Origin: a bacterium
GTDB taxonomy: Bacteria; Patescibacteriota; JABMPQ01; JAUVWW01
Length of the DNA stretch: 64,000 bases
Assembly (NCBI GenBank): GCA_030603885.1
Contig: JAUVWW010000001.1
Coordinates: 70,716-134,715 of the forward strand
Reading direction: 5' to 3'
The notes beneath the pieces were generated by a model. The model saw only the letters and a list, made by a program, of their open reading frames with translations, was not told the DNA's origin and made no database searches. Shown piece after piece: positions 5,437 to 61,113 of the stretch. Position numbers and translations under genes: made by a program. Every line of letters starts with the position of its first letter. Positions within the stretch are counted from its first letter, which is position 1.

Positions 5437-6702
5437 TTGCTTTCTATGGAGAAATTCATTATTCAAGGAAAAAACCTACTTAAAGGAGAAATTTCTGTAT
5501 CTGGAGCCAAAAATTCGGCCCTAAAGTTACTTGCTGCTTCTATTTTAATCCCTGAAGAATGTAGAATTACTAATGTGCCGGATATTGCTGATATTAGGGT
5601 AATGGTTGATATACTTAAGGATCTTGGGGCTGAGGTAAGGCAGAAAAATACTCACGAATATATTATAAATACTAAGAATGTTAAAAAGACAGAGATTAAC
5701 CCGGATTTAGCTGCAAGACTTCGTTCTTCTATTATGCTGGTTACTCCTTTACTGGCTCGTTTTGGAGAAGTGAAATTTCCTTATCCCGGAGGATGTATTA
5801 TTGGAAAAAGGCCTATTGATATATTTCTAGAAGGATTTAAAGCTTTTGGAGCGGAAGTCGAGGAGAAAAATAGCTATTTTCATATCAAGGCAAAAAGATT
5901 AAAAGGATGTAGATTTGTTTTTCCTTGGATTGCTGTGACAGTAACAGAAAGTCTAATCATGGCAGCTATTTTGGCTGAAGGAACTACCATTTTAGAAAAC
6001 TGTGCCCAAGAGCCAGAGATTCAAGCTATGTGTGATTATTTCAATTCCTGTGGAGCAAAAATAAAAGGAGCAGGAACTTCTACTATAAAAATACAGGGAG
6101 TGAACGAAATTTCTGGTGGAACATTCCATGTCATTCCAGATAGAATAGAAACAGGGACATTTGCTGTTTTAGCGGCACTGGCTGGTGAAGGAATTAAGAT
6201 AAGTTCATGTAATCCTAAGCATCTTGAGGTTTTTTGGAAAATGTTAGGCAAAACAGGAGTAAAGCTTGACATAGAAAAAGATTTTGTCTATATTAAGAAA
6301 TCAAGTGATTTTAAGCCACTTGAGGTAAGAACTCATGAATATCCTGGTTTTGTGACAGATCTACAGTCCCCATTTACTGTTCTTTTGACTCAGGCAAATG
6401 GCTTAAGCTTAGTTCACGAGACTATTTACGAGGGGAGACTGCTTTATACAGACAAGTTAAACCGTATGGGAGCCAATATCATTATGTGTGATCCCCACAG
6501 GATAGTGATTCAAGGTCCAACTCCTTTGTATGGAGTAAAAATGGAAAGTCCAGATTTAAGAGCAGGTATGGCACTTTTGATAGCTGCTCTGACTGCCCAA
6601 GGAAAAAGCGAGATTGAGAATATTTATCAGATAGATAGGGGATACGAGAATATTGAGGAACGTTTAAAGAGGTTAGGAGCTGATATTAAAAGAGTAACTT
6701 AA
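5437..6702 (+). CDS. murA: UDP-N-acetylglucosamine 1-carboxyvinyltransferase
   Basis: EPSP-synthase-fold MurA signature (ISVSGAKNSALKLLAASIL, reactive-Cys region CIIGKRPID); length 421 aa. Confidence 0.9.
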   Translation: MLSMEKFIIQGKNLLKGEISVSGAKNSALKLLAASILIPEECRITNVPDIADIRVMVDILKDLGAEVRQKNTHEYIINTKNVKKTEINPDLAARLRSSIMLVTPLLARFGEVKFPYPGGCIIGKRPIDIFLEGFKAFGAEVEEKNSYFHIKAKRLKGCRFVFPWIAVTVTESLIMAAILAEGTTILENCAQEPEIQAMCDYFNSCGAKIKGAGTSTIKIQGVNEISGGTFHVIPDRIETGTFAVLAALAGEGIKISSCNPKHLEVFWKMLGKTGVKLDIEKDFVYIKKSSDFKPLEVRTHEYPGFVTDLQSPFTVLLTQANGLSLVHETIYEGRLLYTDKLNRMGANIIMCDPHRIVIQGPTPLYGVKMESPDLRAGMALLIAALTAQGKSEIENIYQIDRGYENIEERLKRLGADIKRVT

Positions 6703-7737: not shown

Positions 7738-7793
7738 CATCCAACATCCAAACATAGTGTTTTAAATGTTTAGATGCTTAAATGTTTAAATGA

Positions 7794-11584: not shown

Positions 11585-11728
11585 ACCTCAGGTATGCCTC
11601 AAAAACACGCGGTTCTGCCTTCGGCAGACCGCTTAGGTCTCGGCTCGCTTCGCTCGCCTCCGACATAGTTTTTTTTGGCATACCTCTCGGTCTTTAAAAT
11701 AGTAATTACTTCGTGAAACTTTCCAAAT
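11585..11728 (+). repeat. structured intergenic element: UUC-loop hairpin (tctgcc-ttc-ggcaga, 11614-11628) nested within a long-range inverted repeat (aggtatgcc ... ggcatacct)
   Basis: Inverted repeats read directly. It shares the 10-mer gcttcgctcg and the hairpin architecture with the elements at 32530 and 50187. Confidence 0.55.
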
Positions 11729-12844: not shown

Positions 12845-12883
12845 TTTTAAGGCCTCGGGTATGCCTCTAATTCAAAAATAGTC

Positions 12884-14135: not shown

Positions 14136-15188
14136 ATGTTTGATAAATTATTTGGATCACTATCAAAAGATCTAGGAGTAGATTTGGGCACTGCTAATAC
14201 CCTGGTTTATGTTAAGGGAAAAGGCATTGTCATCAACGAGCCTTCGGTGGTAGCTTTTAATAAGAAGACTGGACAGATTTTGGCCATTGGAAACGAAGCC
14301 AGAAAAATGGTAGGAAAAACCCCTGCCCATATCGTAGCTTCAAAACCTTTGGTAGATGGAGTAATATCTGATTTTGAGGTAACGGAAAAAATGTTGAGAT
14401 ATTTTATAGAAAAAGTGCAAGGGGAAGGATTTTCTATTTTCCCAAAGCCCAGGGTAGTCATTGGTATTCCTCTAGGGGTAACAGAAGTAGAAAAAAGAGC
14501 GGTTGAGGATGCGACTATCTCTGCTGGAGCAAGAAAAGCTTACCTTATTGAAGAACCTATGGCTGCAGCTATAGGAGCCAGACTTCCGATTCAAGATCCA
14601 GCAGGATCTATGATTGTAGATATAGGAGGAGGAACTTGTGAAATAGCAGTAATATCTTTGGGCGGGGTAGTGACCTCAAAATCTTTGAGGATTGCTGGAG
14701 ATGAAATGGATCAAGATATAATTCAATTTGCAAGAGATAGCTATAACTTGCTTTTAGGAGAGAGAACAGCAGAAGAAATTAAAATAGCCATTGGTTCAGC
14801 CCATGAATTAAAAGAACCTCTTGAGACTATGATGCGGGGAAGAGATTTAATTACTGGACTTCCTAAAGAAGTAAAAATTAATGATCAAGAGACAAGAGAG
14901 GCACTTTCTAGAACCGTTCATCTTATAATCACTGCTATTAAAGATACTATTGAGGCTACTCCGCCAGAGCTGGTAGCTGATATTATGAAAAAGGGTATAG
15001 TTATGACCGGCGGAGGCTCTTTGCTTAAAGGTTTTGCTCAACTTGTTCAAGAAGAAACTAGGATGCCAACACATTTAGCCGAAGATCCTTTGACTTGTGT
15101 AGTAAGAGGATGTGGAGTTGTACTCGAAGATATTGATACTCTAAAAGAAGTGCTGGTTGCCACCCAGTATGAAAAACCATTAAGGTAA
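14136..15188 (+). CDS. mreB: rod shape-determining protein MreB (paralog 2)
   Basis: VDLGTANTLVYV and DIGGGTCEIAVISLGG motifs. It lies directly upstream of mreC. Confidence 0.9.
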   Translation: MFDKLFGSLSKDLGVDLGTANTLVYVKGKGIVINEPSVVAFNKKTGQILAIGNEARKMVGKTPAHIVASKPLVDGVISDFEVTEKMLRYFIEKVQGEGFSIFPKPRVVIGIPLGVTEVEKRAVEDATISAGARKAYLIEEPMAAAIGARLPIQDPAGSMIVDIGGGTCEIAVISLGGVVTSKSLRIAGDEMDQDIIQFARDSYNLLLGERTAEEIKIAIGSAHELKEPLETMMRGRDLITGLPKEVKINDQETREALSRTVHLIITAIKDTIEATPPELVADIMKKGIVMTGGGSLLKGFAQLVQEETRMPTHLAEDPLTCVVRGCGVVLEDIDTLKEVLVATQYEKPLR

Positions 15189-15218
15189 GAATGTCTAATG
15201 TCTAATTTTTAATGTCTA

Positions 15219-26913: not shown

Positions 26914-27369
26914 ATGGCTAAGAAGTTCATTACTCGAGAAGGATTAGAAAAACTAAAACAAAAATTAGACTATCTGAAATCACATCGTCGAAAGGAAATG
27001 GCTTTGCGTATCAAAAAATTAATTGAGCAGGGAGATATTGTAGAAAGTCCAGCCTATGATCAAGCACAGAATGAACTTCAAGAAGCGGAAGGAGAAATCC
27101 AACAGCTAGAAAATACTATTAAAAATTTGGTGGTTGCCAAAGTCAAAGAGAAGGATGTGGTTAATTTAGGCTCAAAAGTGACACTGCGCTATGATAAAAA
27201 CACAATAGAATATACAATAGTTGGTTTTGATGAAGCTGATCTTAGCCAAAACAAAATATCTTATGAGTCACCTATAGGACAAGCCCTCCTGAATCATAAG
27301 AGAGGGGATGTAGTAGAGGTGCAGACTCCAAAGGGCATGGTTAGATATAAGATATTGAGTGTGGATTAA
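26914..27369 (+). CDS. greA: transcription elongation factor GreA
   Basis: N-terminal coiled-coil with acidic tip plus a C-terminal FKBP-like domain. Confidence 0.88.
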   Translation: MAKKFITREGLEKLKQKLDYLKSHRRKEMALRIKKLIEQGDIVESPAYDQAQNELQEAEGEIQQLENTIKNLVVAKVKEKDVVNLGSKVTLRYDKNTIEYTIVGFDEADLSQNKISYESPIGQALLNHKRGDVVEVQTPKGMVRYKILSVD

Positions 27370-27396
27370 AATATATAACACATTGTATATAACATA

Positions 27397-27425
27397 AGTC
27401 CCGAGATAGGCTCGGGACTTTGATT
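27397..27425 (+). terminator. Rho-independent terminator after greA
   Basis: Perfect 9-bp stem agtcccgag / ctcgggact with loop atagg, followed by TTTGATT. Confidence 0.7.
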
Positions 27426-27482
27426 ATATATTTATTTTTGCTATACTAAAATCATACTAACATTTAAACATATAAACATAAC

Positions 27483-28952
27483 ATGCAGAAGAAATTAGAA
27501 GAGCTAAAAGCTTCTCGCTTAGAAAAACTAAAGGAAATTAGGAAAGCTAGTATTAATCCCTATCCTCAGAAAGGAAATAGGACTCATACTTTAGAAGAAG
27601 CAAGTAAAGATTTTGACAAGCTGCAGGATAAAAGTATAACTCTCTGTGGAAGACTAAGGCTCCTCCGTAGTCATGGAAAAGCTACCTTTGCGCACATTGG
27701 AGACGAATCAGGAAAATTACAGATATACTTGAAATATGACCAGCTAGGAAAGGAAAAATATAAATTCTTTAAAAACTTTGATATTGGTGATTTTATAGAA
27801 GTTAAGGGCGAGCTTTTTAAAACTAAAACTTCAGAAAAAACCCTAAGAGTAGAAGATTTTAGAATGTTGGCCAAAGCTATTCGTCCTCTTCCTGAAAAAT
27901 GGCATGGAATAAAAGAGAAAGAAGTAAGATATAGAAAAAGATATTTAGATTTGTTGATGAATCCCGATGTCAATGAGGTTTTTAGAAAAAGAGCTAAAAT
28001 AGTAAATCTGATCAGGGATTTTATGGAAAAACATGGCTTTTTAGAAGTGGATACTCCGGTTCTTCAGCCAGTCTATGGAGGAGCCTTTGCTAAACCATTT
28101 CAGACGACTCTTGATAGTTTGCATATGAAAGTCTATTTGAGAATTGCCAATGAGCTTTATCTAAAACGTCTTATCATTGGAGGCTATGAAAAAATCTATG
28201 AATTCTCCAAAGATTTTAGAAATGAAGGCATTGACAAAACTCACAATCCAGAATTTACCCAGGTAGAATTTTATTGGGCCTATAAAGATTACAATGATAT
28301 TATGAAGTTTGTTGAGGAATTATATTCTCATTTAGCTAAAGAGATCTTGGGTAGTCTAAAAATAAAATATCAAGGAAAAATGGTTGATTTTACTCCACCC
28401 TTCAAAAGACTAAAATTTGTTGATGCTTTGGAGAAATATTCTGGTATCAAGGGTATCTTAGATATGTCAAAAGATGAGCTTCTTAAAAAAGTTAAGAGTT
28501 TAAAAATAAAAGAACTAGAAGAGAAGAAGCATACTACCAAAGCTGAAATCTTAGAAGATCTTTTTGATTATTTTGTTCAGGACAAACTTTGGCATCCTAC
28601 TTTTGTTATTGATCATCCAAAGGAAACTACGCCCCTAGCTAAAGTCCATCGATCCGATCCTCGACTAGTGGAGAGGGTAGAGCCATGTATTTGTGGCATA
28701 GAGCTAGGAAATGGATTTACCGAACTTAATGATCCAGTTGATCAAAGAAAGAGATTTGAAGAGCAGCTTGAGGCAAGAAAAAAGGGAGCTTTAGAAACTC
28801 ATCCCTTGGACAAAGACTTTCTTGAAGCTATAGAATATGGTATGCCTCCCACAGGTGGTATGGGTATTCCCATTGATAGATTAACCATGATTCTAACGGA
28901 TTCTCCATCGATTAGAGATGTGATTTTGTTTCCCTTTATGAAGCAAAAATGA
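27483..28952 (+). CDS. lysS: lysyl-tRNA synthetase (class II)
   Basis: N-terminal OB-fold anticodon-binding domain. Class II core with NPEFTQVEFYWAY and GGMGIPIDRL motifs. Confidence 0.9.
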   Translation: MQKKLEELKASRLEKLKEIRKASINPYPQKGNRTHTLEEASKDFDKLQDKSITLCGRLRLLRSHGKATFAHIGDESGKLQIYLKYDQLGKEKYKFFKNFDIGDFIEVKGELFKTKTSEKTLRVEDFRMLAKAIRPLPEKWHGIKEKEVRYRKRYLDLLMNPDVNEVFRKRAKIVNLIRDFMEKHGFLEVDTPVLQPVYGGAFAKPFQTTLDSLHMKVYLRIANELYLKRLIIGGYEKIYEFSKDFRNEGIDKTHNPEFTQVEFYWAYKDYNDIMKFVEELYSHLAKEILGSLKIKYQGKMVDFTPPFKRLKFVDALEKYSGIKGILDMSKDELLKKVKSLKIKELEEKKHTTKAEILEDLFDYFVQDKLWHPTFVIDHPKETTPLAKVHRSDPRLVERVEPCICGIELGNGFTELNDPVDQRKRFEEQLEARKKGALETHPLDKDFLEAIEYGMPPTGGMGIPIDRLTMILTDSPSIRDVILFPFMKQK

Positions 28953-31241: not shown

Positions 31242-32531
31242 ATGTTAGACATCAACCTCATTCGTAAAAACCCAGATTTAATCAAACAGGAAATAAAAAA
31301 GCGCCACATGAAGCTGGATGTGGACGAGCTTTTAAAGATAGACAAGAAGAGAAGAGATTTATTAGTCAAAATAGAGAAACTTCGGGCTAAGCAGAATAAG
31401 TTGTCAGACCAAATAGCTAGGCTTTCAGGAAAAGAAAAGCAAAAAGCTATTTTAGAAGGAAAAGCTTTAGCAAAACGAATAGATGAACAAGAGCCTAAGT
31501 TAAAAAAGACAGAAAACAAATTAAGAGATTTGATGTCTCTCTTGCCAAATATCAGTCATGAATCTGGTCCAGAAGGAAGGGATGAATCAGATAATGTGGT
31601 CATAAAAACCTGGGGAAAACTTCCGAAATTCAGCTTTAAGCCAAAAGACCATATTCAGTTGGGAAAAGATTTAGATCTGATCGACATGGAAAAGGCAGCT
31701 AAAGTTTCTGGATCAAGATTTTATTATCTTAAAAATGAGGCCGTGCTTTTAGAATGGGCTTTAGTAAATTATACCTTTGATCTTTTGAGAAAAAAGGGTT
31801 ATATTCCCATTCTTCCACCCCAGTTGGTTAATTATAATACCATGTATGGCTCTGGATTTTTGCCGGCTGAAGAATTTGAAATATACAATGTAAATTCCAA
31901 AGAAGATAACCTGTTTATCATTGGGACAGCCGAGGTTTCTATTTGTGCATATCATCAGAATGAACTCTTTGAAGAAAAAGATCTTCCCAAGAAGTACGTT
32001 GGATTTTCTACTAATCAGAGGAGAGAGGCAGGAGCCTATGGAAAAAAAACCTGGGGAATATTTAGGGTCCATCAGTTTGATAAAGTGGAGATATTTAAAT
32101 TTACAAAAGAAGACACCTCTTGGAAAGAGTTAAATGATATGATTGGGACTGCAGAAGAAATTGTCAAAGGTCTAAAATTGCCTTATCAGATAAGAAATGT
32201 TTGTTTAGGGGATTTATGTCGAAAATGTGCCAAGACTCAAGATTTAGAAGCCTGGATGCCAGGAAAGAGTCCTACAGGACCTAGGGGAGGAAAATATGGT
32301 GAGATTGGCTCTGGATCTAACTGTGCAGATTATCAAGCCAGAAGGCTGAATATAAAATATATTAATAAAGAAGGCAAAAAGCATTTTGTCCATACTTTGA
32401 ATTGTACAGCTTGTGCTATTCCTCGAACCCTGATTGCCATTTTAGAAAATTATCAGCAAAAAGATGGCTCAGTCTTGGTTCCTAAGGTTTTACAGAAGTA
32501 TTGTGGGTTTGAGAAAATAAAAAGAAAATAA
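31242..32531 (+). CDS. serS: seryl-tRNA synthetase
   Basis: N-terminal coiled-coil arm. Class II core (AKTQDLEAWMP, EIGSGSNCADYQARR). Confidence 0.9.
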   Translation: MLDINLIRKNPDLIKQEIKKRHMKLDVDELLKIDKKRRDLLVKIEKLRAKQNKLSDQIARLSGKEKQKAILEGKALAKRIDEQEPKLKKTENKLRDLMSLLPNISHESGPEGRDESDNVVIKTWGKLPKFSFKPKDHIQLGKDLDLIDMEKAAKVSGSRFYYLKNEAVLLEWALVNYTFDLLRKKGYIPILPPQLVNYNTMYGSGFLPAEEFEIYNVNSKEDNLFIIGTAEVSICAYHQNELFEEKDLPKKYVGFSTNQRREAGAYGKKTWGIFRVHQFDKVEIFKFTKEDTSWKELNDMIGTAEEIVKGLKLPYQIRNVCLGDLCRKCAKTQDLEAWMPGKSPTGPRGGKYGEIGSGSNCADYQARRLNIKYINKEGKKHFVHTLNCTACAIPRTLIAILENYQQKDGSVLVPKVLQKYCGFEKIKRK

Positions 32532-32580
32532 GAACCTGCTTCGCAGAACCTTGATTCTCGCTAGGGCTCGAAATAGGCTT
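32530..32580 (+). repeat. intergenic UUC-loop hairpin repeat element (aagaac-ctgc-ttc-gcag-aaccttgattct...gctcgaa)
   Basis: It shares the aagaac...aaccttgattct flanks with the element at 50187. The stem sequence differs but stays complementary. Confidence 0.55.
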
Positions 32581-43317: not shown

Positions 43318-43980
43318 TTATTTGTATAGGTAGTGCTCAACTGCCCACCAAGGCCAGTATTTGTATATGTAGTGCTCAATTGCCTGCCAAGGGTAGCGGC
43401 CTGCATAGACGCTGTCGTCATGCTCCAATTCCAGTTCTCTCAGATCATCATTTTTTGGACGGTTAACTGCCGTCATTTTTCCTGGAACAAGCTCTTCCTT
43501 TGTACTTTTTCTAACGATCCACTTGTCAAGCGGAAGTCCTTCCTCTCCATAATTCTCGTCGATGTAGTCTTCAAAATCTTCCTTGACATATTTCTCGTAA
43601 GCTGTAACATCTGGTTTTTCTATAGGTGTTCTTGATTCACAGAGAACAAAAGCATCATCTTTATTACTGATGAGATCACTAGGTTCCGCTGATCTGTAAA
43701 GCTTCTCCTCTGTGTTTGTTATAAGGACTATAGTACATTCAGCACCTATCATGCTACAAAATTCCTTACCAGTTTTACTTTCCCTGGGATACACCTGATA
43801 CAGTTTTTTATATTGAAGAGCTACTGCTTCCTCTTCAGTTATTGTTTTTGTAGTTACTGGTTGTCTTAATGTTGCATTTCTAATTCCAAAAAAAGCTGCA
43901 GCGGCTAGAGCAACAATTCCTATAACTAAGGCAATAGTTGCTGTTCGGGTGGCGACTCTAGTTTCTGTTGTTTGTTGCAT
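43318..43980 (-). CDS. hypothetical membrane-anchored/secreted protein, paralog A (W/Y-rich C-terminal repeats)
   Basis: N-terminus MQQTTETRVATRTATIALVIGIVALA is shared with paralog B. Strong SD (AAGGGGGTGAT) 4 nt upstream. C-terminal repeats WQAIEHYIYK / WWAVEHYLYK. Confidence 0.6.
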   Translation of the reverse strand: MQQTTETRVATRTATIALVIGIVALAAAAFFGIRNATLRQPVTTKTITEEEAVALQYKKLYQVYPRESKTGKEFCSMIGAECTIVLITNTEEKLYRSAEPSDLISNKDDAFVLCESRTPIEKPDVTAYEKYVKEDFEDYIDENYGEEGLPLDKWIVRKSTKEELVPGKMTAVNRPKNDDLRELELEHDDSVYAGRYPWQAIEHYIYKYWPWWAVEHYLYK

Positions 43981-44040
43981 TTTTATCACCCCCTTTCTTT
44001 GGGATTTCTATAGGATATCTATCTATTTTAAGTTTATCAT
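43898..44040. repeat. duplicated promoter/RBS/signal-anchor segment, copy 1 (pairs with 44756-44900)
   Basis: A near-identical ~145-bp block covers the first ~28 codons plus ~60 bp upstream of both paralog genes. Confidence 0.75.
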
Positions 44041-44157
44041 TATATAAATAGGTTGTCAATAACCTAAAATAATTTAAAAAATTATTTACAATTATGTCTA
44101 TAAATCAAAACAACCCCAGATAGAGGTTGTTTTGAAGTATGAAATGATTTTTGTTTT

Positions 44158-44838
44158 TTATAGGGGTGCTGCTTGTTCACCTGGAGGTATAGGATAAGTA
44201 TAGCATGTACCACTACAATCAATGTCTACACATCCAAATGGATTGCAATCGCCACCCCAAACACTACAGGCACAACCAGTAGTCCATCCTCCCCCCTCTA
44301 ATTTTACTTCACAGAAATCTTTAAAAGATCTTACTGGAATTACAAGAAGGGCTCTATCTGTCGGTCCGGGAAAAACTTGTAATACTTTAACTGGCGAACC
44401 AAGATCTTCTGTAGAAGCAACGAAATTTTGTTCAAAACATACTGTTTCATCTGGCTTAATTTCCTTATACAGTATATGTGCAACAGTTTCTTCGTTTTCC
44501 GGATCATAAAAAGTTTCTTCAAGAGTAACTTCATATCTCATGTCATCTCCTTCATAAATTGCTTTGTTACATTTTTCTGCAAGAAATATGTCATTGTTAT
44601 CCTTCAAATAGAAATTATAAGTTTCATCACAATAACTTAGATCTTCTCTTGATTTTTCCACGGTACCAGCTGGTTTAGTTACTGGTTTAGTTACTGCTTC
44701 ATTTACTGGTTTAGTTACTGCTTGTTGTCTTAGTGCCAGACCTCCCAGAGCACCTGCAGTGGCTAGAGCAACAATTCCTATAACCAAAGCAATAGTTGCT
44801 GTTCTGGTAGCTACTCTAGTTTCTGTTGTTTGTTGCAT
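44158..44838 (-). CDS. hypothetical membrane-anchored/secreted protein, paralog B (Cys-rich C-terminus)
   Basis: The N-terminal ~30 aa are identical to paralog A. The C-terminal ~45 aa carry 9 Cys (GCACSVWGGDCNPFGCVDIDCSGTCYTY). Confidence 0.6.
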   Translation of the reverse strand: MQQTTETRVATRTATIALVIGIVALATAGALGGLALRQQAVTKPVNEAVTKPVTKPAGTVEKSREDLSYCDETYNFYLKDNNDIFLAEKCNKAIYEGDDMRYEVTLEETFYDPENEETVAHILYKEIKPDETVCFEQNFVASTEDLGSPVKVLQVFPGPTDRALLVIPVRSFKDFCEVKLEGGGWTTGCACSVWGGDCNPFGCVDIDCSGTCYTYPIPPGEQAAPL

Positions 44839-44900
44839 TTTTTATCACCCCCTTTCTTTGGGATTTCCACTAGGATATTTATCTATTTTAAGTTTATCAA
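44756..44900. repeat. duplicated promoter/RBS/signal-anchor segment, copy 2
   Basis: See copy 1. The sequences differ at only a few positions. Confidence 0.75.
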
Positions 44901-44921
44901 TACAGAAATAAATTGTCAAAT

Positions 44922-50032: not shown

Positions 50033-50067
50033 CAGGTAAGGCTAAAAACCTTACCTGATTTATTTTA
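50033..50067 (+). terminator. Rho-independent terminator after the T4CP-like gene
   Basis: Perfect 9-bp stem caggtaagg / ccttacctg with loop ctaaaaa, followed by ATTTATTTT. Confidence 0.7.
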
Positions 50068-50186
50068 GTTTAATTAAGAAATTTAGATTAATTTATAGAT
50101 TGTTTGACATGATTTTTAAACTACTTTATACTAAAATAAGTTATTAACAACCTTCTAAATATAAAAACTCAAAAATAAAATAATAT

Positions 50187-50235
50187 AAGAACCTCACCTT
50201 CGGTGAGAACCTTGATTCTTGCTTCGCTCGAATTA
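50187..50235 (+). repeat. intergenic UUC-loop hairpin repeat element (aagaac-ctcacc-ttc-ggtgag-aaccttgattcttgcttcgctcgaa)
   Basis: See the elements at 32530 and 11585. It shares flanks with 32530 and the gcttcgctcg 10-mer with 11585. Confidence 0.55.
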
Positions 50236-50251
50236 AAAATATAAAAATAAA

Positions 50252-50866
50252 ATGCCAAAAAGAAAAATTAAGAAACAAAAAAACAAAGAAACACAAAAAC
50301 TAACTTCAATCCAGGAAATGATTACCTCTGCTGAAGCCAATCTTAAATCAGCCAAAGAGTTGCTTTTGGAAATTTTAGGAAAAGAGGCTAAGAGAGTGGG
50401 GCTTAAAAAAGAAGCTAAAAAACTTAAAGTTTTAGAAGAGGGGAAGATAATTGAAGGGATATTTGATGGCCGAAATATGATTGGGCCTGATGATCGGATT
50501 TACCCAATTCCGGCTAATTATGCCTCTAAATCCAAATTAGTCGAAGGAGATGTACTCAAGCTAACCATTGCTCCTGATGGCTCTTTTATTTTCAAACAGA
50601 TTGGACCGTGTGATAGAAAAAAGTTAATAGGAAAGGTAGTCAAAGAAAGCGAAGGAAATTATAAGGTATTGGCAAGCGGCAAATCTTATAAAGTGCTTTT
50701 AGCTTCTGTTACTTATTTCAAAGCTGAAGAAGGGGATGAAGTGACTATTGTAGTACCTAAAGAGAAAGAATCCACCTGGGCAGCCATTGAGAATTTAATA
50801 AAGAAGACAAAGGAGTCTGTTCTAAGCTCTGCTGAAGCTGAAGAAGAGCTAGAGGAGATAGGATAG
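50252..50866 (+). CDS. hypothetical protein
   Basis: Lys-rich N-terminus and an acidic C-terminus; no motif. Confidence 0.4.
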   Translation: MPKRKIKKQKNKETQKLTSIQEMITSAEANLKSAKELLLEILGKEAKRVGLKKEAKKLKVLEEGKIIEGIFDGRNMIGPDDRIYPIPANYASKSKLVEGDVLKLTIAPDGSFIFKQIGPCDRKKLIGKVVKESEGNYKVLASGKSYKVLLASVTYFKAEEGDEVTIVVPKEKESTWAAIENLIKKTKESVLSSAEAEEELEEIG

Positions 50867-59951: not shown

Positions 59952-60928
59952 AACCTCAACAACTAAAAAAACTTTTGGTTTATCTCTCAAAGGACTATAC
60001 TATTTTTGGACCAGAAAAAGTGGGAGATAGATTGCTAATTAGAGAAATAAAAGATGCAAAAAAATTTAAGCTGGTTAACAAAAAACCATTTTATTCCCAC
60101 AAAGAATTTCTTATTCCATCCTCTCAAACTTTGTTTAATTATGATAAAAATAAGCTCTTAAAACCAAGAATAAAAAGAAAACAAGTACTCATAGGTATAC
60201 CCGTCTATGATTTGAAAGCCTTTACTTTATTACATGAGGTTTTTGAGAAGGATGTCTATTTTCAAGAAATCATCCGCAATATTATATTAATTGGTCACAG
60301 CCCGGTACCAGAAGAGACCACTTTTTATGAAGATTACGAAGAACATATACTAGAACACCTTAGGTTTGATATATTTTTAGAGTTTAAACCAAAAGGAGAA
60401 TTTAGAGTTTTTACTGGCTCAGAAGATGGCCAAAGGATTTTAGAAAAAGTAGGCATAAAAGATTATGAGCATGTTGAATATGCTGGGGCAGTGCCAGAGG
60501 AAGGTTTAGCTATCACAGAAAAGATAAAACAAAAGCTGGTAAAAAGTTCTAAAAATACCAAAATATGGAAAGAACTAAACAAAAGATGTATTGTCTGTGG
60601 CAAGTGCGTTATTTCCTGTCCTACCTGTTTTTGCTTTAATATCGATGATGAGCCTGCTTTTGAGAAAAATCAGGGAAGTAGAATTAGAGACTGGGGTGTT
60701 TGTTTTTATGAAGAGTTTTCTGAGGTAGCTGGAGGGGAGAAATTTCTGAAAACTATCGGAGATAGAATCTATAACTGGTATGATCATAAGTTTGTTAGAA
60801 TACCAAATGAATATACTTTGCCTGGCTGTGTAGGCTGTGGTAGATGCATCGAAGTCTGTCCTGCTAACATTGACCTTAGAAAAACATTTCGAGATTTGAA
60901 AAAATTATTAAAAAGTAAAAAATTATGA
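59948..60928 (+). CDS. Fe-S subunit, sulfhydrogenase beta (HydB)/AsrA-like
   Basis: Cys clusters CIVCGKCVISCPTCFCF and CVGCGRCIEVCP. Confidence 0.6.
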   Translation: MKPQQLKKLLVYLSKDYTIFGPEKVGDRLLIREIKDAKKFKLVNKKPFYSHKEFLIPSSQTLFNYDKNKLLKPRIKRKQVLIGIPVYDLKAFTLLHEVFEKDVYFQEIIRNIILIGHSPVPEETTFYEDYEEHILEHLRFDIFLEFKPKGEFRVFTGSEDGQRILEKVGIKDYEHVEYAGAVPEEGLAITEKIKQKLVKSSKNTKIWKELNKRCIVCGKCVISCPTCFCFNIDDEPAFEKNQGSRIRDWGVCFYEEFSEVAGGEKFLKTIGDRIYNWYDHKFVRIPNEYTLPGCVGCGRCIEVCPANIDLRKTFRDLKKLLKSKKL

Positions 60929-61113
60929 GACCAAAAGTAGATGAAGAAAAATGTACTGGCTGTGGCATTTGTGTCAATCTCTGTCCCAAGACTTTTAAGA
61001 TTGGTGAAGATGGCAAGGCTGAAGTCATTGGAGAGGACACCTGTGGAAAAGAGTGCGACTGCCAAGCTGCAAAAGACTCATGCCCAGTCCAAGCTATAAC
61101 ATTAGAAGAGTAG
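60925..61113 (+). CDS. small 4Fe-4S ferredoxin
   Basis: CTGCGICVNLCP plus a second Cys cluster; 62 aa. Confidence 0.65.
   Translation: MRPKVDEEKCTGCGICVNLCPKTFKIGEDGKAEVIGEDTCGKECDCQAAKDSCPVQAITLEE

Follow-up and report, generated by a model that had tools for sequence, protein, structure and literature searches.

The BOX repeats of Streptococcus pneumoniae are modular (PMC3184786), with a unit of about 45 nt tandemly amplified between other modules. Repetitive extragenic palindromic (REP) elements are described as G+C-rich extragenic palindromes of 21–65 nt, non-coding, present in many dispersed copies, and in many cases included in the 3′ part of gene transcripts (PMC3184786; PMC3337134; PMC3116915). 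SPRITE, also from S. pneumoniae, is a dispersed repeat that resembles a Rho-independent terminator, and the MIRUs are repeats of 40–100 bp that lie head to tail in the intercistronic spacers of operons, oriented with the genes, variable in copy number, and with ends overlapping the adjacent genes (PMC3184786). Here, we describe three intergenic hairpin elements, named A, B, and C, from a stretch of 64 kb of a Patescibacteriota genome (contig JAUVWW010000001.1; this whole stretch is called the window below). Elements B and C belong to one family of non-coding interspersed repeats of 40–51 nt, called type 1 in this work, that is found in many genomes of the Patescibacteria, or candidate phyla radiation (CPR). 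Element A is a separate, lineage-restricted palindrome of the kind of the miniature inverted-repeat transposable elements (MITEs), itself dispersed, that carries the two hairpin modules of type 1. The reading that we favour, and hold to be probably right, is that of a dispersed and likely mobile repeat family resembling REP, BOX, and MITE elements.

Extent, anatomy, and covariation of the type-1 repeats

Loci fetched from other genomes or metagenomes are labelled L001 to L164; their genes are crude open reading frame (ORF) calls, and the element-bearing genomes were read as 8-kb pieces. A scan with the pattern AAGAAC-N11-15-AACCTTGATTCT, over one genome per species, gave at least 114 loci, with 121 pattern matches among the matches listed. 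In 50 of these 121, the flanks enclosed a stem of 4 bp or more, against about 2% expected, and all 50 were found in metagenome-assembled genomes (MAGs) of Patescibacteria type. The hosts were Nealsonbacteria, Paceibacteria/Parcubacteria, Minisyncoccales, Curtissbacteria, members of the “Patescibacteria group”, and several TPA bins labelled Saccharibacteria, plus two bins labelled Gammaproteobacteria, the repeat arrays of one of which match those of Curtissbacteria bins. The remaining 71 matches, all stemless, were scattered over unrelated phyla in a number close to the chance expectation. A scan of IMG/VR gave three pattern matches, all without a hairpin, which were set aside as chance matches.

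A covariance model (R1) was built from 15 full-length copies, with C in the seed and B outside it. It recovered 75 copies at E ≤ 0.001 in L001–L100 and 10 more at E ≤ 0.01 in L101–L114, that is, at least 85 further copies. The initial annotation of A, B, and C, made from the letters of the window, had proposed this kind of genome scan and covariance model, and copies beyond the window do exist. Separate arrays often number two or three per 8-kb block in element-bearing genomes. No type-1 copy was found in 37 serS-related metagenome loci (L115–L151; of unknown taxonomy, the best SerRS being only 49% identical), nor, apart from that of L161, in about 60 kb from closer relatives, so the distribution of type 1 is patchy. 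A search of the whole window against Rfam 15 gave no match at the gathering score, and permissive Rfam searches around A, C, and the array of L042 returned only noise (E ≥ 0.15).

The fixed part of a type-1 unit is TAAGAACC, a first hairpin (H1), and (A)GAACCTTGA, after which comes a second hairpin (H2). The outer ends of H1 are constant, opening with CT and closing with AG, and the stem between them is free in sequence: at least 46 distinct H1 sequences were counted. All tallies of arrays and units in this text (67 arrays; 64 or 79 units) are among the matches listed at L001–L114. Watson–Crick pairs occupy 332 of the 346 H1 stem positions (96%), with 8 G:T and 3 A:C pairs, too few to tell which strand is selected. 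In an alignment fitted to R1, double compensatory changes occur at all six H1 pairs, with 97% of the cells paired; sliding the partner column drops pairing to 26–45%, and the observed values were reached by none of 500 shuffles. The covariation that the initial annotation had read from the three stems of the window was, therefore, confirmed on a much larger set. As for the conserved UUC loop, TTC is the loop of the first hairpin in A, B, and C and of H1 in 40 of the 64 units (mostly as C-UUC-G), whereas the H2 loop of B reads TAGG.

The long form of H2 is TTGATTC-TC-GC-nnn-GC-TC-GAA(T/A)TAA, with a conserved 2 × 2 pyrimidine internal loop. H2 may also be short, as in TTGATTC-TTC-GAATTAA or ATAC-TTC-GTAT, and in some units it is almost absent. 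Every unit opens with TAA, and TAA is found again after the last one; either a target duplication or a part of the element would fit this TAA...TAA boundary. The ends of the unit, TAAGAACC and CGAATTAA, are not complementary, so type 1 has no terminal inverted repeats. Several other readings of these parts were tried and rejected: with TTGATT taken as a −35 box, the units showed no consistent −10 box at 16–18 nt, and for a K-turn or box C/D in H2, or a boxA or 16S mimic in the flanks, the registers did not fit.

In the window, six perfect hairpins with a TTC loop were found by scanning the 64 kb, and only three of them, those of A, B, and C, combine a G+C-rich stem with the c-TTC-g closure; all three are intergenic and have the sequences and places first reported for them. 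B and C contain every part of the unit (TAAGAACC, a hairpin, GAACCTTGA(TT), and a second hairpin ending in (A/T)TAA), and A does not. The conserved flanks and tails first reported are shared pairwise: AACCTTGATTCT occurs exactly twice in the window, in B and C, and GCTTCGCTCG, also exactly twice, in A and C, the count of near-matches to the latter exceeding that of 97 of 100 shuffles, while A lacks both type-1 flanks (TAAGAACC and GAACCTTGATT). Besides B and C, R1 found nothing significant in the window. One weak match (E about 1) was noted at 27395–27449, where a hairpin AAGTCCCGAG-ATAGG-CTCGGGACTT lies 3′ of gene 26914–27369; it was rejected as a family member, being better read as an ordinary terminator plus a promoter, TTGATT-16-TATACT, for the gene at 27483.

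That three AT-rich hairpins between genes resemble each other by chance could be suspected from B, which alone folds no better than its shuffles (z = −0.24, versus −3.8 for C). However, the exact motif matches, the dozens of further copies, the stems in 50 of 121 pattern matches, and the strong covariation refute this explanation, as the initial annotation had anticipated, and we give it practically no probability.

Single units make up 50 of the 67 arrays, and in the others, two to four or more units, usually identical within one array, follow each other head to tail with a period of 39–51 nt. All arrays run on one strand, with no inverted doublets of the REPIN kind. We also noted composite arrays in Curtissbacteria-type genomes (L044:4256–4390, L089, L026, L106, L113), in which two to four tandem copies of a 21-nt hairpin unit, TAAGCAAAGCTTTTCTGCGAA (TAAGCA(A/G)AGCTTTTCTGCGAA), are joined to one type-1 unit.

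Tandem units with conserved and variable segments are also found in guide-RNA arrays of the TIGR-Tas or CRISPR kind, and the variable hairpin halves of type 1 could be taken for spacers. TIGR-Tas systems are defined by units with two non-covarying variable spacers beside a Nop-domain tas gene (PMC12045711), and their arrays have been reported from parasitic bacteria, including Patescibacteria, so that the host phylum matches. However, the variable halves of H1 are complementary to each other, whereas spacers A and B of TIGR show no covariation (PMC12045711). Moreover, an array usually repeats one and the same unit, the majority of copies stand alone at scattered sites among housekeeping genes, no Nop-domain gene was found among the window neighbours (SerRS, Alr, the T4CP-like protein, and the hypothetical protein), and IMG/VR held no real copies. 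A guide-RNA array is, in consequence, an extremely improbable explanation.

As far as the cited descriptions go, REP, BIME, and REPIN repeats and type 1 are alike in being short G+C-rich extragenic palindromes with many dispersed copies and no coding capacity. However, a REP has a fixed stem sequence, a 5′ tetranucleotide of the GTAG type, and an organization in inverted doublets (REPINs) around or with the gene of RAYT, the Y1 transposase that mobilizes it, whereas in type 1 the stem is free, only the single-stranded flanks TAAGAACC and GAACCTTGA are fixed, and the units lie head to tail. The combination of GTAG and a conserved stem by which a REP is recognized is absent from type 1, with its 5′ flank TAAGAACC and 46 distinct H1. 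The modular layout of BOX is like that of the type-1 arrays and of the composite Curtissbacteria-type arrays, and the terminator likeness of SPRITE is that of the bottom strand of type 1. Unlike BOX and SPRITE, to which it has no sequence relation, type 1 starts at stop codons and turns its terminator-like face mostly antisense to the flanking genes. Type 1 is like the MIRUs in its head-to-tail units in operon spacers, about 80% of them gene-oriented, and in its variable copy number. MIRUs hold small ORFs thought to couple translation, whereas no small ORF common to the type-1 units exists, since TAA opens every unit and the array periods are not multiples of three. Among the papers searched, searches by core sequence found none with the type-1 core in a relevant context, and searches by topic found none that joined Patescibacteria with REP, REPIN, MITE, or intergenic hairpin repeats, except for TIGR arrays. 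In conclusion, the kind of element is known, as small interspersed hairpin repeats, and what is new is the architecture, in which the single-stranded flanks are fixed while the stem is free, the units are arrayed head to tail and start at stop codons, and the antisense face resembles a terminator.

Position, orientation, and turnover of the copies

By the ORF calls, all type-1 units are intergenic. In 17 of the 67 arrays, B among them, the opening TAA doubles as the stop codon of an upstream ORF with 60 codons or more; a few other upstream ORFs run into the element and end at its TGA (ccTTGAtt), and the next start codon often lies 1–60 nt past the array. Between co-directional genes, 29 arrays are in sense and 7–8 in antisense orientation (about 80:20), the ratio being about 70:30 at the locus level. 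Antisense copies may tend towards longer spacers: in a hand tally, which is no more than suggestive, spacers of at most 70 nt hold 14 of the 29 sense and 1 of the 7 antisense arrays. Replication and transcription bias are confounded in the comparison of GC skew with the coding strand within 8-kb pieces.

On the bottom strand, the sequence after H1 is GTTCTTA(T/A) (GUUCUUAU), which is complementary to the conserved (A/T)TAAGAAC. A scan for terminators flagged B (32535–32547) and C (50192–50208) on the minus strand, and the T-run rule was passed by the bottom strand in 73 of 79 units, which count as one conserved feature and not as 73 independent events, and by the top strand in 2 of 79. This layout suggests that a type-1 unit would terminate transcription in one direction only, which would account for the sense, non-terminating orientation held by most units at tight operon junctions. 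The sense bias of roughly 80:20 may thus be due to the resemblance of bottom-strand H1 plus GUUCUUAU to an intrinsic terminator; alternatively, the hosts may keep the units as antisense terminators.

A different matter is whether the three elements of the window are simply the Rho-independent terminators of frr, serS, and the T4CP-like gene, with no more than a superficial likeness. Their hairpins are indeed G+C-rich and 3′ of genes, and A contains a run of eight T. However, the top-strand tail after H1 is GAACCTTGATT, which hardly ever contains a T-run, C is preceded by a separate canonical terminator and by a predicted promoter, and tandem arrays are found inside tight operon junctions. As for the eight-T run of A, it is the strand of a stem in which it pairs with AAAAAC, and in a second A-type copy (L156) the run is interrupted while the pairing is kept by a change from A:U to G:C. 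Altogether, we consider that sense terminators are a very unlikely explanation for the three elements. Ordinary terminators with a hairpin and a T-run are present in other spacers of the window.

Comparison between relatives showed type-1 units to be present, absent, or differently placed at several junctions. In the syntenic loci L051 and L075, the array lies between gene B and rplM in the former and between gene A and gene B in the latter, and in another syntenic pair the element is upstream of a gene in L001 and downstream of its orthologue in L042. Two loci that are 94% identical, L036 and L042, contain two and four identical units, respectively. In L096, elements abut the stop codons of two actin-family (MreB/FtsA-type) genes, and the spacers after the orthologues of these genes in the window (ends at 15188 and 7737) are other short spacers with no element. 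As a separate observation, several spacers around the mreB/mreC genes were seen to be filled with AT-rich short tandem motifs, aatgtctaatgtctaa and atgtttaaatg in the window (15189–15218 and 7760–7793) and gaattgtgaattatgaattgagaattc-like motifs in relatives (L158:7594–7669; L159:4106–4179 and 5519–5587).

Regarding the two copies of the window, B is absent from the serS-alr junction of L155, whose SerRS is 85% identical and whose gene order is the same. In the exact place of B after the serS TAA (L155:2295–2330) there is a different hairpin, AACCAGGC-atacttaaggta-GCCTGGT; this locus also has an extra reverse ORF of 71 aa before alr, and its downstream flank (TAGG...) is homologous to that of the window. 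An identical copy of C (80.2 bits), with the canonical CTCGC, is found at the same place in the 99% strain L161, whereas L162, L163, and L164, with proteins 73–79% identical, have no element upstream of the orthologous gene. This patchy, high-turnover pattern matches that of a dispersed repeat. The initial annotation had left the choice between a selected RNA structure and a mobile repeat of the REP/MITE kind. Of the two, the second fits better, because the copies are not tied to particular genes, occupy different junctions of syntenic regions, vary in tandem number, and are present or absent in close relatives.

The same data bear on the possibility that hosts select the units as transcript punctuation. 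In the sense orientation, the stop codon and the stable stem-loops would then serve for 3′-end protection, processing, or cistron insulation in polycistronic mRNAs, the antisense direction would act as an intrinsic terminator blocking antisense transcription into the upstream gene, and the GAACC motifs, conserved and unpaired, would be binding sites for a host protein or RNA that is itself conserved. Consistent with this are the near-invariance of the flanks across distant CPR classes, the 80:20 sense bias, the start of 17 of 67 arrays at a stop codon with a downstream ATG often 1–60 nt after the array, the place of C between a predicted promoter and a start codon, the terminator-like bottom-strand tail of 73 of 79 units, and the scarcity of Shine–Dalgarno-like motifs in the organism of the window (6 of 63 starts). 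However, type-1 units are not linked to any gene family, their sites differ between syntenic genomes, the close relatives lacking B and C have no like substitute, 20–30% of the copies are antisense, identical units are amplified two to four times in variable number, many related genomes carry none, and ordinary terminators exist where the organism needs them. Host-selected punctuation, the main alternative, is, in our opinion, a possible but rather unlikely explanation, and it does not conflict with descent from a mobile repeat, the two readings not being exclusive.

Element A and other features of the window

Element A, located between frr and rseP, folds with an energy of −41.8 kcal/mol (z = −5.9); the 9-bp stem AGGTATGCC/GGCATACCT lies outermost, followed inwards by an A/U stem and by two inner hairpins, Ha and Hb (Table 1). 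The longer inverted repeat around the first hairpin and the recurrence of half of it after rseP, both reported in the initial annotation, were thus found as described; this solo left end is also present in the 99% strain L157, which carries A as well, and absent from L158–L160. The core of Ha, CTGCCTTCGGCAGA, is the commonest H1 of type 1, and the 13-nt module of Hb is the top of the type-1 H2. With R1, A gave only a local match to the 13-nt core CTCGCTTCGCTCG (E = 0.64). Aligned to the consensus of type 1, the interior of A matches as CTGCCTTCGGCAGA...CTT...CTCGCTTCGCTCG, with a Smith–Waterman score of 38 versus 13.1 ± 2.2 for shuffles (maximum 25) and at most 23 for every other segment of the window. 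The original grouping of A with B and C holds, therefore, for the two hairpin modules in common, and not for the element as a whole, which is distinct and has terminal inverted repeats.

A is absent from the frr-rseP spacer of L158, whose RseP is 81% identical and whose gene order is the same. The empty site of L158 is tagACCTCGGTCTTT, its spacer reading tagACCTCGGTCTTTAAATTAG, and the filled site of the window reads tagAC-CTC-{96 nt}-CTC-GGTCTTTAAAATAG (GGTCTTT). The corresponding spacers of L159 and L160, of only 11 and 19 nt, also lack A. A second A-type copy, likewise of 96 nt and 84% identical, lies between two genes in a close relative (L156:193–288; the partial SerRS on the same contig is 92% identical), and the counterparts of these two genes in the window overlap by ATGA at 28949–28952. 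Both copies fold alike, with a compensatory change from A:U to G:C in the A/U stem, from CUGCC/GGCAG to CCGC/GCGG, and from GC-UUC-GC to AC-UUC-GU, the UC/UC internal loop being kept. The CTC repeats around A may be a target-site duplication, but this duplication and the boundaries of A are uncertain, because the two copies still resemble each other for about 20 nt beyond the inverted repeats. In addition, in a 72% relative the contig breaks off within a CTCGCTTCGCTCG hairpin module that lies in reverse orientation immediately upstream of frr (L159:1–26).

With its terminal inverted repeats, long hairpin fold, lack of an ORF, and insertion polymorphism, A agrees with the definition of a MITE (PMC3184786). 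The MITEs Correia/NEMIS, RUP, and ERIC are like A in their size of about 100 nt, terminal inverted repeats, long hairpin, short direct repeat, and absence of an ORF. Insertion polymorphism, as in MITEs, was seen in A, and copies at unrelated loci and their presence or absence were found for A, B, and C, although the type-1 units, unlike MITEs and A, have no terminal inverted repeats. To our knowledge, there is no parent insertion sequence with the inverted repeats of A.

Table 1. Location in the window of elements A, B, and C, their parts, and the signals next to them
Feature	Position	Strand	Basis
Element A, 96-nt palindromic, MITE-like, with two inner hairpins related to type-1 H1 and H2	11590–11685	+	Fold, comparison
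Left terminal inverted repeat of A, AGGTATGCC	11590–11598	+	9/9 with right repeat
Right terminal inverted repeat of A, GGCATACCT	11677–11685	+	9/9 with left repeat
CTC direct repeats flanking A	11587–11589 and 11686–11688	.	Comparison of filled and empty sites
Inner hairpin Ha of A, CGGTTCTGCC-TTC-GGCAGACCG	11610–11631	+	Fold, alignment
Inner hairpin Hb of A	11637–11664	+	Holds 13-nt module CTCGCTTCGCTCG at 11644–11656
Isolated left end of A (CCTCGGGTATGCCTC, 14/15 match) between rseP and proS	12853–12867	+	
Copy B, type 1, TAAGAACC-H1-GAACCTTGATTCT-H2	32529–32576	+	R1, 48.7 bits, E = 3e-11, outside the seed
Stop codon of serS, first TAA of B	32529–32531	+	Coordinates
H1 of B, CTGC-TTC-GCAG	32536–32546	+	TTC-hairpin scan
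H2 of B, degenerate long form, TTGATTC-TC-GC-TAGG-GC-TC-GAAATAG	32551–32576	+	Sequence, R1
Canonical hairpin and T-run terminator of the T4CP-like gene	50033–50057	+	Terminator scan
Predicted sigma-70-type promoter, TTGACA-17-TATACT (11/12)	50104–50132	+	Consensus match only
Copy C, type 1	50186–50236	+	R1, 77.5 bits, but seed member
H1 of C, CTCACC-TTC-GGTGAG	50193–50207	+	TTC-hairpin scan, fold
H2 of C, TTGATTC-TT-GC-TTC-GC-TC-GAATTAA, lower stem with 2 × 2 pyrimidine internal loop	50212–50236	+	Fold, R1 alignment

The window is AT-rich (about 35% G+C), with nearly all its genes on the plus strand. TAA is the stop codon of 47 of its 63 genes, and a Shine–Dalgarno-like motif, leniently defined, precedes only 6 of the 63 gene starts. 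The neighbours of A, B, and C encode RRF and RseP, SerRS and alanine racemase, and a T4CP-like protein and a conserved hypothetical protein of 204 aa, respectively, with ProRS after RseP; homology agreed with the names first given to frr, rseP, serS, and the T4CP-like gene, and the named homologues of these proteins come from Patescibacteria. An exact look-up of the RseP sequence of the window gave no recorded entry. Copy C ends 15 nt 5′ of the ATG at 50252 and, to judge from the promoter consensus and the canonical terminator before it, would lie in the 5′ untranslated region of gene 50252–50866. No tRNA genes, and no relics of tRNA or tmRNA genes, were found in the window.

Two further observations were made in the window. 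A small ORF at about 60925–61113 (plus strand), below the 80-aa threshold for listing, has a product, MRPKVDEEKCTGCGICVNLCPK...CPVQAITLEE, with a cysteine spacing like that of a small 4Fe-4S ferredoxin. In addition, the adjacent minus-strand genes 43318–43989 and 44158–44838 have near-identical upstream regions (43885–44059 and 44743–44919) and N-termini that are near-identical over 26 residues (MQQTTETRVATRTATIALVIGIVALA) and then diverge completely, which looks like the tandem duplication of a signal or anchor module.

Possible origin and biological meaning

From the pattern described above, we infer mobility as its cause, a recognition role for the flanks, a terminator-like behaviour of the bottom strand, and selection against polarity. 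Under the probable reading as mobile repeats, the units would be gained, lost, and amplified in intergenic spacers as dispersed DNA repeats, and not as regulators of particular genes. The invariant flanks and the hairpin, conserved in structure only, would form the recognition unit of a copying agent, for which a single-strand transposase of the HUH/Y1 type, or a host recombination or replication process, are candidates. With TAA on both sides of the unit, insertion at a TAA stop codon would spare the upstream gene; within operons, the copies tolerated would mainly be those whose orientation lets sense transcription continue, and transcribed units would add stable stem-loops to the mRNA.

A possible precedent is provided by the IS200/IS605 elements (IS608/ISDra2), which have no terminal inverted repeats, make no classical duplication, and use subterminal hairpins, each with a short guide sequence before it, for strand-specific insertion next to a fixed short target. 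The layout TAA-GAACC-H1-GAACC-H2...TAA may resemble that of the palindrome-associated elements (PATEs) derived from them, a resemblance that serves as a lead. Known PATEs are several hundred nt long, unlike the type-1 unit of 40–51 nt. Carried further, type 1 would be the smallest known self-contained substrate of HUH-type or other copying machinery specific to Patescibacteria, retained by the host as an antisense terminator: a module of 40–50 nt with two guide-plus-hairpin halves (GAACC-H1 and GAACC-H2), targeted to TAA stops and amplified in tandem. We regard this more specific proposal as decidedly unlikely; if true, it would make type 1 a domesticated punctuation element of a new class, protecting the operons of ultra-small genomes from antisense transcription.

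Several observations weigh against the interpretation as mobile repeats. No transposase, RAYT, TnpA, or other mobilizing gene was identified in the 8-kb pieces that were read, with no host-genome-wide transposase search made. Type 1 has no terminal inverted repeats, and the TAA...TAA boundary may belong to the element. For neither B nor C did the alignments give a clean empty site, and the different hairpin at the junction of L155 may reflect replacement or divergence of B. The core TAAGAACC...GAACCTTGA is near-invariant from Curtissbacteria to Nealsonbacteria, as would be expected equally if a conserved host factor recognized it, and the scan pattern used imposes some of this invariance. Both the sense bias and the abutment of stop codons are also expected from a function at the transcript level, and the ORF calls behind them are crude. 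To these must be added, for A, the similar sequence of about 20 nt beyond its inverted repeats.

The genomes of Patescibacteria rank among the smallest and most streamlined of all bacteria, with very short intergenic spacers. A repeat family proliferating in such spacers means that streamlined genomes still carry dynamic non-coding DNA. In practical terms, the copies are a ready marker for strain typing, and they are a likely cause of contig breaks in MAGs, as the contig of L159 ends inside a hairpin module. The family could also serve as a starting point in the search for whichever enzyme or host factor recognizes GAACC-flanked hairpins. Finally, if its terminator-like face is functional, the family would bear on the control of antisense transcription in AT-rich, Shine–Dalgarno-poor organisms.

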